Positions 11,261-15,955 of a DNA stretch of 20,554 nucleotides are shown here, piece after piece (positions within the stretch are counted from its first letter, which is position 1; every line of letters starts with the position of its first letter). Source of the stretch: a virus (lineage: Duplodnaviria > Heunggongvirae > Uroviricota > Caudoviricetes); the IMG/VR virus record IMGVR_UViG_2541047172_000030. One strand, given 5' to 3'. The notes beneath the pieces are model-generated. The model made no database searches, had not been told where the DNA came from, and saw nothing but the letters and a program-made list of their open reading frames with translations. The position numbers and the translations under genes are program-made.

Positions 11261-11690
11261 TATTGCTGTCGTCTGGGATCAGGGTTGCGGTTCCCTGCAA
11301 CTGAACGGCGCAGATCTTCTGACGGATAACAGCCTGCTGACTGCGGTCATTATTTCACTGTTTACGGACAGGCGGGCGCTGGATTCCGATGAAATCCCTG
11401 ACGGCACCCGTGACCGTCGGGGATGGTGGGGAGACAGTTTCCGGGAGCGCCCCGTTGGCTCCCGTCTCTGGCTGTTAAGCCGTGAAAAGACGCTGTCCTC
11501 CGTGGTCAGCCGTGCACAGGCCTATGCTGATGAAGCGCTGGCGTGGCTGCATAAAAGCGGTGCTGCCACATCCGTGGTATGTCATGCCATGCGTGTGGGG
11601 CATGCTCGCCTTTCGCTTTCCGTGAAAATCACCCTGCCGGACGGAAGCAGACATCCGATGATTTTTTATGCTGATATGAAGGGGGAATGA
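11253..11690 (+). CDS. Baseplate protein (Mu gp46-like, gp25/GPW family)
   Basis: In-frame ATG at 11253 with GGGAGGA upstream, within ORF-track entry 11040-11690; gives 146 aa. Overlaps the spike gene stop and the next gene start (ATGA). Confidence 0.65.
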   Translation: MADIAVVWDQGCGSLQLNGADLLTDNSLLTAVIISLFTDRRALDSDEIPDGTRDRRGWWGDSFRERPVGSRLWLLSREKTLSSVVSRAQAYADEALAWLHKSGAATSVVCHAMRVGHARLSLSVKITLPDGSRHPMIFYADMKGE

Positions 11691-12772
11691 TGCCTTATCA
11701 GCCCTTACCACTGGCGCAACTGATCACACAGACACAACAGGATATCAGCCAGCGCCTGCCCGGTTCGCAGCCGGGCGTGAATGAAACCACCCTGAATGCC
11801 ATTGCGTATGCACTGGCGGGTCTGTCAGCACAGGAGCATGAACATCTGGCCTGGATCTCCCGGCAGATAATTCCGACAGAAGCTGATGAAGCCGAACTCC
11901 TGAAACACTGCGCATTCTGGGGTGTCATCCGTAAACCGGCTTCCCGCGCTGACGGACCGGTACAACTGATGCTGACCACGGATGCAGGGATCACGGAAGG
12001 CGTACTCCTTCAGCGAAGCGATGGGGTTGTGTACCGCATCACCGGCTCTGCGACCGGAAAAGCCGGAACACTGAATGTTAATGTGGAGGCGGAAAGTGCG
12101 GGGCGCGCTGGAAATACCCCGACCGGAACCCGCCTGTCCTTTATCACGCCACAGGCGGGCATCAACCAGACAGCCACGGTCACCGGCACGGGACTCACCG
12201 GTGGTGCGGATGTGGAAACGGTGCCGGAGTTGCTGTCCAGGCTGGTATTCCGGGTACAGAACCCGCCATCAGGGGGAACACAGTATGATTTTGAACGCTG
12301 GGCACGGGAAGTACCGGGCGTGACGCGGGCATGGTGTAAGCCTGAATGGCCTGAGGCGGGTAGTGTTGGTGTGACTTTTGTTCAGGATAATAACCCTGAC
12401 ATTTTCCCCGGAGAAGGTGATGTGAAGCGGGTGGCGGATTATATCCGCAGTCATGATGATCCGGCGACGGGCCAGCCCGTTGGTCAGCCACTTGGGCCGA
12501 CAATCAGCGTGTTTAAGCTGACCAATAAGCCGGTGGCGTTTGAGATCAGGATTGTACCCAAAACGCCGGAAAATCAGGCTGCCGTAAAACAGGCATTAAC
12601 AGACCTGCTTTATAACGAATCGCGGCCGGGTGGACTTGTATTGCCTTCATCATTCTGGCGGGCTGTTGCAGGGGTGAAAGGACTGGAGGATTTTGAAGTT
12701 CGCAGCCCGCTGAAGTCCGTGATGGCCGGAGATACAGAGTTGCTGACCGTGGGGGAAATCACATGGCTGTAA
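11687..12772 (+). CDS. Baseplate wedge protein (Mu gp47-like, baseplate J family)
   Basis: 361-aa ORF at the Mu gp47 position, translationally coupled to both neighbours. Confidence 0.7.
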   Translation: MMPYQPLPLAQLITQTQQDISQRLPGSQPGVNETTLNAIAYALAGLSAQEHEHLAWISRQIIPTEADEAELLKHCAFWGVIRKPASRADGPVQLMLTTDAGITEGVLLQRSDGVVYRITGSATGKAGTLNVNVEAESAGRAGNTPTGTRLSFITPQAGINQTATVTGTGLTGGADVETVPELLSRLVFRVQNPPSGGTQYDFERWAREVPGVTRAWCKPEWPEAGSVGVTFVQDNNPDIFPGEGDVKRVADYIRSHDDPATGQPVGQPLGPTISVFKLTNKPVAFEIRIVPKTPENQAAVKQALTDLLYNESRPGGLVLPSSFWRAVAGVKGLEDFEVRSPLKSVMAGDTELLTVGEITWL

Positions 12773-13323
12773 CCCTGACCCCGCATCAGCGCGCCCTGTT
12801 GCAGTTGCTGCCTGACGGGCTGGCATGGGATAAGCGGCCGTCATCCGTTCTTGCGGCTTTGTGCCTGGGCCTCAGTCATTCCACGGAGCGTGTTTCCTGG
12901 ACCGGTAACCAGATGCTGGCAGAACGTTTTCCTGATTCATCCCGTCTGCTGCTGGAAGACTGGGAGCGTTATCTGGGGTTACCGGAATGTGATATGACCG
13001 GCGCAACCATTCAGGAGCGTCAGCGTTATGCCGGGAATAAATACCGGATGAAACCCTCTCTTAACCGTGAATTTTATATCCGGTTTGCGGCAGAGTTTGG
13101 TTATGAAATAGATATTCAGCCATCACCGGATTCACAGTGGGTCAGTATTGTCACGATTAACAGTGAAACCGGCTACCGGAATATGAATGTGCTGGATGAT
13201 ATTCTCACGCCGCTGCGTATTTATGAAGGCGGTGCGCTGGAATGTATTCTGAACCGTTATAAGCCTGCATGGCAGACGTTTATTTACGTATATGCAAACA
13301 GTCACGAAGAGGAGAATATTTAA
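12763..13323 (+). CDS. Baseplate/tail protein (Mu gp48-like)
   Basis: 186-aa ORF between the wedge and tail-fibre genes; its stop overlaps the tail-fibre ATG (TAATG). Confidence 0.6.
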   Translation: MAVTLTPHQRALLQLLPDGLAWDKRPSSVLAALCLGLSHSTERVSWTGNQMLAERFPDSSRLLLEDWERYLGLPECDMTGATIQERQRYAGNKYRMKPSLNREFYIRFAAEFGYEIDIQPSPDSQWVSIVTINSETGYRNMNVLDDILTPLRIYEGGALECILNRYKPAWQTFIYVYANSHEEENI

Positions 13324-14234
13324 TGTTCCATGTTGATAATAATTCCGGCGTGGCGAATATGCCTGCGCTGGCACCGGCGCAGAGTAATACCACCACCTGG
13401 TTTACCGAAGGTGACGGACAAAAAGGTATCAGCTGGATTGGTCAGGACTGGCTGAATATTCTCCAGGCCGAACTGCTGAATATTCTGGCTGAAGCCAGTA
13501 TTCAGCCGGATAAGGCGCAGTTAAACCAGCTTACGCTGTCCATTAAAGCCATTATCGCTGCGAATGCCTTTTCCCGGAAAAACAACCTGAAAGAAATTGC
13601 TGATGCCGGTGCGGAAGCCCAGCGTCTTGCCCGTGGTTATCTTGGTCTTGGGGCGCTTGCCACAAAAAACAGTCTTGGTCCCGGTGACGTTAATGCTCTG
13701 GCGAAGGATCAGAACCTTGCCGACCTGGAGAATGCGGGAACCGCCCGTAATAATCTGGATGTTTACAGCAAAAGCGAAGGTGATAACCGTTACCTGCGCA
13801 GGGAGCAGAACGGCGCAGACATTCCGGATAAAGGCGCTTTTATCGATAACGTTGGTTTACGGGAAACGGTAAATAAGGCTGCTGATGCCCTGCCATCGGG
13901 TGGAACCGCCGTGGCAGCAAACAGACTCGCCACCCCAAGAAATATTAATGGTGTTCCTTTTGACGGAACGCTGGATATCAACATCACGTCAGGAATGACG
14001 CAGTCAACCGCAGATGGCCGGTATGTACAGAATGTTCAGCTTGGAGCACAGAGCTATCATTCACCCGGAGGCAATGAAATGTCATGGAATTACAGCGCAC
14101 CTTCCGGTTGTATGCTTTCCGGAATTAACGTGCAGGAAACCGGCTCCCGGTCTGCGGACAATATCGGTGGGGTCTATTATCGCCCGGTTCAGATTTATAT
14201 TAATAATGCCTGGAGAACGGTAAGTTCAGTGTAA
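13323..14234 (+). CDS. S: Tail fibre protein S: constant N-terminal part fused to the currently expressed variable C-terminal part
   Basis: In-frame ATG at 13323 with GAGGAG upstream, within ORF-track entry 13269-14234; 303 aa. A Gin-type crossover site lies inside the gene at 13840-13865. The C-terminal ~125 aa are paralogous to a promoterless minus-strand cassette at 14870-15228. Confidence 0.8.
   Translation: MFHVDNNSGVANMPALAPAQSNTTTWFTEGDGQKGISWIGQDWLNILQAELLNILAEASIQPDKAQLNQLTLSIKAIIAANAFSRKNNLKEIADAGAEAQRLARGYLGLGALATKNSLGPGDVNALAKDQNLADLENAGTARNNLDVYSKSEGDNRYLRREQNGADIPDKGAFIDNVGLRETVNKAADALPSGGTAVAANRLATPRNINGVPFDGTLDINITSGMTQSTADGRYVQNVQLGAQSYHSPGGNEMSWNYSAPSGCMLSGINVQETGSRSADNIGGVYYRPVQIYINNAWRTVSSV
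13840..13865. other. Left inversion crossover site (gix/hix-like 26-bp site) inside the tail fibre gene
   Basis: TTATCGATAACGTTGGTTTACGGGAA; its reverse complement TTCCCGTAAACC-AA-CGTTATCGATAA fits the remembered Hin/Gin/Cin/Pin consensus. Shares the core TCCCGTAAACC with the right site, in inverted orientation. Confidence 0.6.
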
Positions 14235-14244
14235 ACCACAGAAA

Positions 14245-14263
14245 AGGGTGCTGAATGCACCCT
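14245..14263. terminator. Stem-loop between convergent tail fibre and tfa genes (7-bp stem AGGGTGC/GCACCCT, 5-nt loop)
   Basis: Perfect inverted repeat in the 34-bp gap between the two convergent stop codons; flanking sequence is only weakly U/A-rich. Confidence 0.35.
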
Positions 14264-14268
14264 CTGAA

Positions 14269-14790
14269 TTATTCCGGTTTTTCCGGCCAGGGAATCGCCT
14301 GGTAATGCCCCTCACTGGCAATATCATTAAAGTGCATTTCTTTAAGCTGTCGGATATACGCCATCCAGCGCGTCAGCTGTAATTTATTTTCATCGCTAAT
14401 CATGTCCAGTTTTAATTCCGTTTTCCAGTCATCCACAGTTTCGTTGGCTTCCTGGAGCAGCGATGAGCGGCGCTTTTCAGCAACCGTCTTCCAGTTTACC
14501 GGCACCTTTGATATCAGGCCATCAGAAAACTGCCAGTTACCGTCAATATTCACACCTTCCGGCAGTTCGTCCACTTCAACAACAGTAAAACCTGCCGGAT
14601 ATAAAGCAGAGACATCTTCAGCAACAGAGCAGATAATACCCGTTACAGGCGAAATACAGAGTTTGTATTTCTTTGTGAAAAGCGGGATAGATTCATAAAA
14701 ATCCCTTCCGTCCTCACTCTGGAAATACTGAACATCCTCACCATAGGGTTTGTGTTCCGGGTAATATCGTTTTACGTTAATAAGCTCCAT
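14269..14790 (-). CDS. Tail fibre assembly protein (Tfa; Mu U / TfaE-like)
   Basis: ORF-track entry 14269-14901; start placed at the internal ATG (14790), which has an AAGGTGA site, giving 173 aa. C-terminal ISDENKLQLTRWMAY... resembles Tfa family proteins (recollection). Co-oriented with and downstream of the silent alternate cassette. Confidence 0.8.
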   Translation of the reverse strand: MELINVKRYYPEHKPYGEDVQYFQSEDGRDFYESIPLFTKKYKLCISPVTGIICSVAEDVSALYPAGFTVVEVDELPEGVNIDGNWQFSDGLISKVPVNWKTVAEKRRSSLLQEANETVDDWKTELKLDMISDENKLQLTRWMAYIRQLKEMHFNDIASEGHYQAIPWPEKPE

Positions 14791-14869
14791 TATTTCACCT
14801 TGTTTTTGTTGAAAAGACAAAATCATCATATATTTATTCAGATAATCTGTTTTTTGAACTACTGCACTT

Positions 14870-15228
14870 TTATGCGCTGGAAGCTGTTTTCCACGAACCA
14901 TCTATCAGAAACTGAACAGGTCGATAATATGCGGTTACCGTTGCATTACCATCACCAGCGACATCAAGCCCTGTAAGTACGCATCCGTCAGGAACCTCAA
15001 AAATATTATATTGCATTCCAATCGTTGACCTTGAACCTCTTCGAATGCTTTGAACATAACGTGAGTCAGCCACAGACTGCGTCATCCCCGATGTAATATT
15101 TATATCCTGCGTTCCGTCAAATGGGACACCATTAATATTTCTTGGAGTGGCGAGTTTATTCGCTGCAACAGCCGCTCCGTTCGATGGCAGGGCATTCGCG
15201 GCCCTGTTTACAGTATCCCGTAAACCGA
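14870..15228 (-). CDS. Promoterless alternate tail fibre C-terminal cassette (Sv-prime), expressed only after inversion
   Basis: Minus-strand frame open from the right crossover site to a stop at 14870-14872. The ORF track reports only the part from an internal Met (14870-15085). My translation (GLRDTVNRAANALPSNGAAVAANKLATPRNINGVPFDGTQDINITSGMTQSVADSRYVQ...) parallels the plus-strand tail fibre (GLRETVNKAADALPSGGTAVAANRLATPRNINGVPFDGTLDINITSGMTQSTADGRYVQ...) and diverges toward the C-terminus. Confidence 0.7.
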
Positions 15229-15241
15229 AGGTTTCAGGGAT
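15215..15241. other. Right inversion crossover site (gix-like), upstream of the invertase gene
   Basis: ATCCCGTAAACCGAAGGTTTCAGGGAT: imperfect palindrome with AAACC / GGTTT half-site cores, about 55 bp upstream of the invertase ATG. Confidence 0.6.
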
Positions 15242-15295
15242 GCCGTATATCTGCTTTAAAAGGCCTTTCCACCTCTTTTTAAGGAAGGTAAATAC

Positions 15296-15856
15296 ATGCT
15301 GATTGGCTATATACGCGTATCAACAAATGACCAGAACACAGGTTTACAAAGAAATGCGCTGGAATGTGCAGGATGTGAGCAGATTTTTGAAGATAAAATG
15401 AGTGGTAAAACGACACAGCGGCCGGGACTGAAGCGGGCACTGAAGAAACTAAAACCCGGTGACACACTGATGGTCTGGAAACTGGACAGGCTGGGGCGCA
15501 GTATGCGCCACCTTGTTGCGCTGACAGATGAATTACAGCAACAGGGGATAAATTTTCGTAGTCTTACTGACAACATTGATACGTCAACCCCCATGGGGCG
15601 CTTCTTTTTTCACATAATGGGTGCGCTGGCAGAAATGGAGCGTGAATTAATTGTCGAACGGACACGGGCTGGTCTTGCAGCTGCCCGTGAAAGGGGACGA
15701 ACCGGCGGCAGACCCCGTCGTCTCACGCAGGAACAATACGAGCAGGTCGGGCGTTTACTGGCCGGGGGTGTCAGTCGAAGACAGGTGGCACTTATTTTTG
15801 ATATCGGCCTTTCAACCCTTTATCGTTATTATCCTGCGAGCGTTTCGGAAAAATAA
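15296..15856 (+). CDS. gin: Serine recombinase DNA invertase (Gin/Pin/Cin/Hin family)
   Basis: 186-aa ORF starting MLIGYIRVSTNDQNTGLQRNALECAGCEQIFEDK..., with ...WKLDRLGRSM...GINFRSLTD...MGRFFFHIMGALAEMERELIVERT..., near-identical over long stretches to Gin/Pin as I recall them, including the catalytic Ser in RVSTNDQ. AAGGAAGG site 6 nt upstream. Confidence 0.95.
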   Translation: MLIGYIRVSTNDQNTGLQRNALECAGCEQIFEDKMSGKTTQRPGLKRALKKLKPGDTLMVWKLDRLGRSMRHLVALTDELQQQGINFRSLTDNIDTSTPMGRFFFHIMGALAEMERELIVERTRAGLAAARERGRTGGRPRRLTQEQYEQVGRLLAGGVSRRQVALIFDIGLSTLYRYYPASVSEK

Positions 15857-15955
15857 GACGCTCTCTTTGTTGGGCCTTTACTGAATTAACGCAAAATGGC
15901 GTTTATCGGTCTGTGGATATGATAATTCAGTTTATTCAGGAACAGGCTGATTATT

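Follow-up and report, generated by a model that had tools for sequence, protein, structure and literature searches.

Based on an analysis of the IMG/VR virus record IMGVR_UViG_2541047172_000030, a stretch of 20,554 nt referred to here in its full length as the window, and comparisons to related prophages, we propose with good confidence that its tail-fibre locus is an inversion switch of the G-segment type in a Mu-like prophage of the Sp18 type (Sp18 being a prophage of E. coli O157:H7 Sakai), and that the allele present in the window recombines, with inversion giving a truncated fibre. The constant N-terminal part (Sc) of the tail-fibre gene S lies outside the invertible segment, which holds two alternative C-terminal tips, Sv and S'v, the latter start-less and on the opposite strand. 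The principal features are the following.

13323..14234, + strand: tail-fibre gene S in its present state (Sc and Sv, 303 aa plus stop), assigned through Mu S homology and the Sakai annotation (ECs_4989, the same 912-nt gene).
13323..13853, + strand: Sc, the first 177 codons, which encode the constant N-terminus and are not part of the invertible segment; their sequence does not differ between genomes of the two orientations.
13840..13865, + strand: left crossover site, 26 bp, two 12-bp half-sites around a central dinucleotide (12-2-12), TTATCGATAACG TT GGTTTACGGGAA, central TT at 13852-13853, assigned through its match to Mu gix.
13854..15227, no strand: invertible segment, 1,374 bp (1,373 bp in the Sakai allele), found in both orientations in complete genomes.
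13854..14234, + strand: Sv, the expressed variable tip, 126 aa plus stop, from translation.
14269..14790, - strand: fibre-assembly chaperone gene, U'-like, 173 aa, the sole one, assigned through Caudo_TAP, Mu U homology and Sakai ECs_4990.
14870..15226, - strand: S'v, a silent cassette without start codon, 118 codons plus stop at 14870-14872, from translation.
15215..15241, + strand: right crossover site, 27 bp (12-3-12), ATCCCGTAAACC G AA GGTTTCAGGGAT, extra G at 15227 and exchange dinucleotide AA at 15228-15229, defined by comparison to Sakai.
15296..15856, + strand: gin, serine DNA invertase, 186 aa, with Resolvase and HTH_7 domains and Mu Gin homology.

The behaviour of the window allele hinges on a single base. 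Megablast of positions 13500-15900 returned 100% identity in many Shiga-toxin-producing E. coli (STEC), including O157:H7, O26, O103 and O145:H28, and also matched prophage Sp18. The latter is one and the same element, with only G15227 distinguishing the two in the 2.4 kb that surround the switch. In Sakai, the right site reads CCCGTAAACC AA GGTTTCAGGGAT, a canonical 26-bp, 12-2-12 site with the core AAACC AA GGTTT, whereas the window has CCCGTAAACC G AA GGTTTCAGGGAT, i.e. AAACC G AA GGTTT, with the half-sites 3 bp apart. A preliminary description of the window, made from the sequence alone, had placed an inverted partner of the left site at 15215-15241; the partner is present and inverted, but it is 27 bp long, owing to the extra G. 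The variant is real: among 5,426 complete E. coli genomes, the set to which the genome counts in this work refer, it recurs without any change in 36, which originate from different laboratories and represent different serotypes, and the respective prophages are inserted in different host genes, including dcuC, psiE and sorM. Strains that carry it include E2865, RM10386, RM8385 and FRIK944. It was not found in a search of IMG/VR, and the right sites of relatives are 26 bp long with AA or GA cores. Another right-site variant, with an extra T in the outer half-site (GGTTTTCAGGGATA) and a GA centre, was seen in four relatives (L003, L004, L057 and L125), and occurs in inverted genomes with an intact 295-aa fibre; right-site length variation is hence not unique to the window allele.

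The canonical, Sakai-type allele inverts in nature. The locus is in the orientation of the window in 182 complete genomes and inverted in 23, and when the Sakai locus was inverted in silico exactly between the central dinucleotides, it matched NZ_CP148314 (strain Z1323MEC0002) with a single mismatch in 3,000 nt. This sister allele is thus represented in either orientation, the breakpoints lying at the site centres, and the junctions of inverted relatives fall exactly at the left site. In the inverted Sakai-type genomes, the reading frame of the Sc-S'v fibre (295 aa) is intact, and the chaperone gene comes next. Furthermore, ten IMG/VR contigs of relatives (L070-L075, L078, L080-L082) end within about 150 bp of the crossover, three of them 2-9 bp beyond, at the very point where Sv and S'v part, as expected for the assembly-fork signature of mixed-orientation cultures. 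No pair of opposite orientations at the same insertion site was obtained: the inverted prophage of O157:H7 2-6-2 lies in mdtH, an insertion unique among the complete genomes, and that of Sakai in sorM. For two genomes (L005, NZ_CP024056, and L006, NZ_AP027256; 124-1011), the annotation lists a 67-aa fibre fragment and an antisense open reading frame where translation yields the intact 295-aa Sc-S'v protein, which is an annotation inconsistency and not a real disruption. The view of the locus as an invertible switch of the Gin type, as originally put forward, is accordingly borne out by public genomes of both orientations with junctions at the predicted crossover.

For the window allele, exchange at TT/AA would move the extra base into S, such that Sc is followed by 23 out-of-frame residues, yielding a protein of 200 aa that ends ...FIDNV-RFTGYCKQGRECPAIERSGCCSE-stop. 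Precisely this predicted fusion protein is found on 49 public contigs (e.g. EEQ2250427.1, EEQ6322842.1, EER0890563.1 and EES1058662.1), one of them 5.5 Mb long. By the same type of exact-sequence look-up, the in-frame Sc-S'v fusion of 295 aa was located on 153 public contigs, in addition to 5 complete genomes, and the 303-aa Sv form on at least 1,000. From the 200-aa protein, a junction AACGTT-C-GGTTTACGGGAT can be deduced, and as the parental junctions share 2 nt only, the product is not an assembly chimera. Its presence indicates that the 27-bp site is apparently still recombined and, as judged from these protein records, that the window allele apparently still inverts. Most likely, the window copy therefore toggles between the Sv fibre and a truncated fibre, and not between two receptor-binding tips.

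We propose that the switch operates as follows. By homology with Mu and Hin, S would be read from the upstream late operon, with its first 177 codons outside the segment. Gin, encoded just right of the segment, would bind as dimers at the left and right sites, probably with the assistance of Fis on an enhancer in the 5' part of gin, a dependence that we infer. Both sites would then be cut at the central TT/AA with a 2-nt stagger, and a 180-degree rotation followed by religation would invert 13854-15227, as in the invertasome model for Gin and the Fis-bound enhancer (PMC3575834, PMC3798978). Canonical Sakai-type copies would in this manner alternate between the 303-aa Sc-Sv and the 295-aa Sc-S'v fibre, the single chaperone gene following the latter. 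In the window allele, G15227 belongs to the segment and separates the central dinucleotide from the half-site on the S'v side, and with a cleavage point fixed relative to the outer half-site, the extra base would land in S just past codon 177 and shift the frame. The flipped junctions are expected to read ...GATAACGTT C GGTTTACGGGATACTG... on the left and ...CCCGTAAACC AA GGTTTCAGGGATG..., without the G, on the right, the +1 junction being AACGTTCGGTTTAC. The window copy would then possess one working host-range state, the present Sv state, and a flipped state that is presumably defective and would be expected to yield non-infective particles lacking fibres; the flipped phenotype and the rate of inversion are predictions from this scheme.

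Several points weigh against continued inversion of the window allele. A junction-specific megablast of the RefSeq complete genomes retrieved no inverted DNA record of the extra-G allele, and the reciprocal right junction is a prediction; a look-up of the chaperone protein returned canonical alleles within the 24 largest blocks. All 36 extra-G genomes share one orientation, although the lack of inverted ones falls short of significance (P = 0.24, assuming inverted copies to be as frequent as among Sakai-type genomes). Published data on the half-site spacing of gix or hix were not found, the literature searches retrieving only engineered Gin fusions with variable core lengths, and the 12-3-12 site is as yet a predicted Gin substrate, just as the Fis sites are candidates.

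It is conceivable, though unlikely, that the switch is frozen, i.e. that the 1-bp insertion has abolished recombination, locking the Sv orientation and leaving S'v as a fossil. The uniform orientation of the extra-G genomes is in line with such a state, and so is the 12-3-12 spacing, which shifts one half-site by 1 bp. The closest published parallel is the Mu-like Shigella phage SfMu, in which the repeats differ by one base beside the central dinucleotide; a host-range change was not seen, and the authors suspected reduced or abolished inversion (PMC4406740). The change in SfMu is a substitution and that in the window an insertion, and the SfMu segment is a full-size Mu-type G segment. Against a frozen switch, the exact TT/AA inversion product on the 49 contigs would, for a frozen site, call for two independent mirror-image 1-bp insertions. 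A locked switch was the interpretation initially favoured here, from the extra G and the single orientation of the 36 genomes, and was overturned by the exact match of the frameshift product.

A fully working two-host-range switch, in which inversion fuses Sc in frame to S'v and thereby provides an alternative tip and its chaperone, appears less probable still, and quite doubtful for this allele. The sister allele does precisely this, as evident from the in-frame fusion in contigs and complete genomes described above, and S'v and the chaperone gene of the window are intact and identical to those of Sakai. Nevertheless, an in-frame product would require exchange in the register of the coding homology, where the left core TT faces a right core TC. 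Mismatched cores lead in Hin to a second rotation that restores the parental arrangement (PMC4513852). Moreover, no in-frame inverted genome that keeps the extra G at the right junction was found, the best matches to the corresponding in-silico sequence all being 1 nt shorter, and it is the frameshifted product that exists in the public collection. The alternate receptor-binding tips of the preliminary description hence apply to the Sakai type, while for the window allele, with S'v out of frame, the claim is probably wrong. Finally, that the inverted repeat is a mere remnant of duplicated fibre genes beside an unrelated recombinase, without site-specific inversion, is refuted for practical purposes, since an inversion that breaks exactly at the central dinucleotides separates prophages that are otherwise nearly identical and since sites and enzyme are orthologous to Mu gix and Gin, the sole point in its favour being that the 185-nt repeat is coding homology.

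With inversion to a truncated fibre as the preferred reading, we turn to the crossover sites. The left site, noted early on as a gix-like 26-bp sequence in the fibre gene, is identical to Mu gix (TTATCCAAAACC TC GGTTTACAGGAA, from AF083977) at 21 of 26 positions and occupies the equivalent position in the S frame (Mu, FIQNLGLQETVN; window, FIDNVGLRETVN). Its half-sites are symmetric at 7 of 12 positions, equal to Mu, in agreement with a 26-bp, 12-2-12 site. The right site of Sakai matches Mu at 18 of 26 positions, with a half-site symmetry of 10/12. Read from the outer, gin-side half-site, the right site has a central dinucleotide (AA) identical to that of the left (TT). Two copies of the 11-mer GGTTTACGGGA, and no more, are present in the window, one on either strand (13854-13864 and 15216-15226), against a chance expectation of 0.34 matches with one mismatch allowed. 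Within the family the centre is polymorphic, with TC/GA (the Mu type) and TT/AA (Sakai and the window), but the two sites agree in every genome read. A "localized conversion" has reportedly been described for the cix sites of P1, which the matched change of centre in the Sp18 family recalls.

The best-matching known system is the Mu G segment with Gin and gix, also present in D108, which resembles the window in the position of the crossover inside S, in the site and in Gin. In both, gin lies immediately right of the segment, and the prophage end carries mom/com. Mu S and U are homologous to the N-terminus and tip of the window fibre and to the chaperone, respectively. Differences are also apparent. 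The distance between the central dinucleotides is 1,374 bp (1.37 kb) in the window and 3,056 bp (3.06 kb) in Mu, or 45%, confirming a segment of roughly 1.4 kb that is less than half of Mu G; the tips comprise about 120 aa as compared to about 335 aa in Mu; Mu has two chaperone genes (U and U') and the window one; the Mu centre is TC/GA, as in other prophage relatives, and that of the window TT/AA; and the right site of the window allele is 12-3-12. Hin/hix of Salmonella, Cin/cix of P1 and Pin/pix of e14 represent the Din family of Fis-dependent invertases, small serine invertases that act at 26-bp sites with 2-bp staggered cleavage. Hin flips a promoter and the window switch a coding end, and the P1 and e14 systems are presumably akin to the window switch.

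The invertase itself was rightly regarded as a near-canonical member of the Gin family. It matches PF00239 (E = 1e-51) and PF02796 (E = 2e-14), as typical for a small serine recombinase, shows 75% identity over 181 aa to Mu Gin, and matches the structures 3uj3 (Gin) and 4m6f with E = 2e-91. The N-terminus reads MLIGYIRVS(9)TNDQ, and S9, H106 and M114 are conserved; changes of M114 render Gin Fis-independent, and the wild-type residue is kept here. A candidate enhancer is located in the beginning of the gene.

15317..15380, + strand: candidate recombinational enhancer in the 5' end of gin, with two Fis-like G-N13-C 15-mers, from a degenerate-motif comparison with Mu.

The two 15-mers (gin nt 22-36 and 71-85) occupy the same gin positions as in Mu and agree with it at 15/15 and 14/15 positions of what is a degenerate motif. 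They span 64 bp, and the proximal one is separated by about 96 bp from the middle of the right site, a geometry like that of the hin enhancer, which is placed within the gene for its recombinase at about 100 bp from one of the sites (PMC3798978). No other part of gin is as well conserved with Mu, third codon positions included, as its 5' 120 nt.

The start of S is at 13323 and not at 13269, as determined from the Mu S alignment and the Sakai annotation. The longest fibre open reading frame begins 54 nt further upstream (13269-13322) and overlaps the end of the gp48 gene. S residues 1-191, from M19 of the longer frame, align to Mu S (5yvq_A, E = 5e-49), and the last approximately 70 aa align to residues 435-503 of the Mu S tip. 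The Sv tip is homologous to the latter and about 48% identical to the C-terminus of the P2 fibre. Sv and S'v share 50 of their first 60 residues and thereafter only 22 of 66 aligned columns, much as the initial estimate of some 55 similar residues followed by divergence had it. The inverted repeat arms, 13845-14029 and 15051-15235, are 185 nt long and 77% complementary, and this repeat is the coding homology of Sv and S'v. In some relatives (L003/L004 at 655-760, and L125), the first approximately 25 codons past the crossover are a mosaic of Sv-type and S'v-type sequence (GLRETVNKAANALPSNGTAV...), which suggests gene conversion between the repeat arms. The ratio of nonsynonymous to synonymous substitution (dN/dS) is 0.09-0.13 for Sc against diverged relatives and, at a dS near 1, 0.11-0.12 for Sv. 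Purifying selection acts on both tips and on the chaperone gene, with dN/dS of 0.1-0.2 where the divergence is informative.

The first account of the segment listed Sv on the + strand and a promoterless S'v on the - strand, which holds, and missed the chaperone gene at 14269-14790 on the - strand. The encoded protein matches Pfam Caudo_TAP (E = 2e-18) and Mu U in structure 5yvq_B (E = 2e-15). S'v sits 79 bp upstream of this gene, whereas the Sv strand has no chaperone gene downstream, so the arrangement differs from that of Mu, where each fibre end is followed by a chaperone gene of its own (U, U'). Between the convergent genes lies one further element.

14243..14265, - strand: G+C-rich terminator-like hairpin between the convergent Sv and chaperone genes, a pattern match only, from a consensus scan (9-pair stem and T-rich tail on the - strand).

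All complete-switch relatives that were read likewise have a single chaperone gene, downstream of the same cassette. The compactness of the switch is hence due to short tips and a single chaperone gene, an architecture conserved across the family and not peculiar to the window locus. The tips homologous to Sv, those of Mu S and P2 H, come from phages with a fibre chaperone gene, such as Mu U; P2 carries one for its fibre as well. Relatives without S'v and gin, which share one deletion junction, retain S on the + strand and the convergent chaperone gene on the - strand, and in these the latter is intact (e.g. L055 4947-5519, and L067) with dN/dS of 0.13-0.20. This purifying selection in gin-less relatives suggests that the chaperone gene has its own promoter and is expressed independently, and that its product may act on both tips. 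A consensus scan revealed no promoter for it in the 79-bp spacer of the window, and in the gin-less relatives a 10/12 promoter match is present upstream of the gene, but the number of such matches is not above chance. A conserved inverted repeat, TCTGAAATATGCGTTATTTCAGA, lies approximately 60-90 nt upstream of the chaperone start in six relatives (L007, L050, L069, L079, L055 and L067), being kept even in gin-less ones; the 79-bp spacer of the window is unrelated to it.

The window as a whole extends over the late region, with the tail genes, to the right end of a Mu-like prophage, as seen from open reading frames and Pfam matches. Upstream of the switch are genes for baseplate protein J (11687-12772) and Mu gp48 (12763-13323), and directly after gin a protein of 679 aa is encoded (15956-17995, + strand) that combines a SASA sialate O-acetylesterase domain with DUF6645; it resembles prophage-borne cargo esterases of STEC and also follows the switch in gin-less relatives. 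The mom gene is found at 19377-20114 and the prophage ends near 20243. The insertion junction of the window, i.e. the prophage end with 310 bp of flank up to 20554, matches none of the 5,426 complete genomes, and related copies are inserted in sorM, mdtH, dcuC, psiE, comR, mhpD and other genes; the varied host genes and nearly unique insertion sites point to the Sp18 type being an actively transposing phage. Sp18 has been predicted to be intact and its DNA reported to be efficiently packaged (PMC2669165). Among isolated phages of the INPHARED collection the fibre is absent, except for a Mu-like insert in two Stx phages, and a scan of GTDB species representatives detected only distant relatives, in Citrobacter braakii and Edwardsiella.

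The switch as such is not new. An "invertible host-specificity region" of Sp18 was noted already in 2009 (PMC2669165), and its parts are annotated in RefSeq, for Sakai as ECs_4989 (fibre), ECs_4990 (assembly protein), ECs_4991 (fibre fragment) and ECs_4992 (DNA-invertase). Invertible fibre segments being textbook knowledge, the locus adds little in that respect.

In conclusion, on balance and with reservation, we favour the following view. A Gin site with a 3-bp gap is still recombined, with the exchange set by the outer half-site and the extra base pair travelling with the segment, which would turn a two-tip switch into a fibre on/off switch, and transposition has carried the allele to many insertion sites and into several STEC serotypes. 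Independently of this, the Sp18-type family appears to run two tips with one chaperone gene, whose conservation in relatives without gin and S'v suggests a promoter of its own and service to both tips. The single, possibly shared chaperone raises a small question of how Tfa-type chaperones match fibre tips. The window allele represents a natural experiment on the half-site spacing that is tolerated by a Fis-dependent invertase and on which half-site fixes cleavage. For host-range calls, about one-fifth of the copies (36 of approximately 180 window-oriented complete genomes) would be able to express one tip only.

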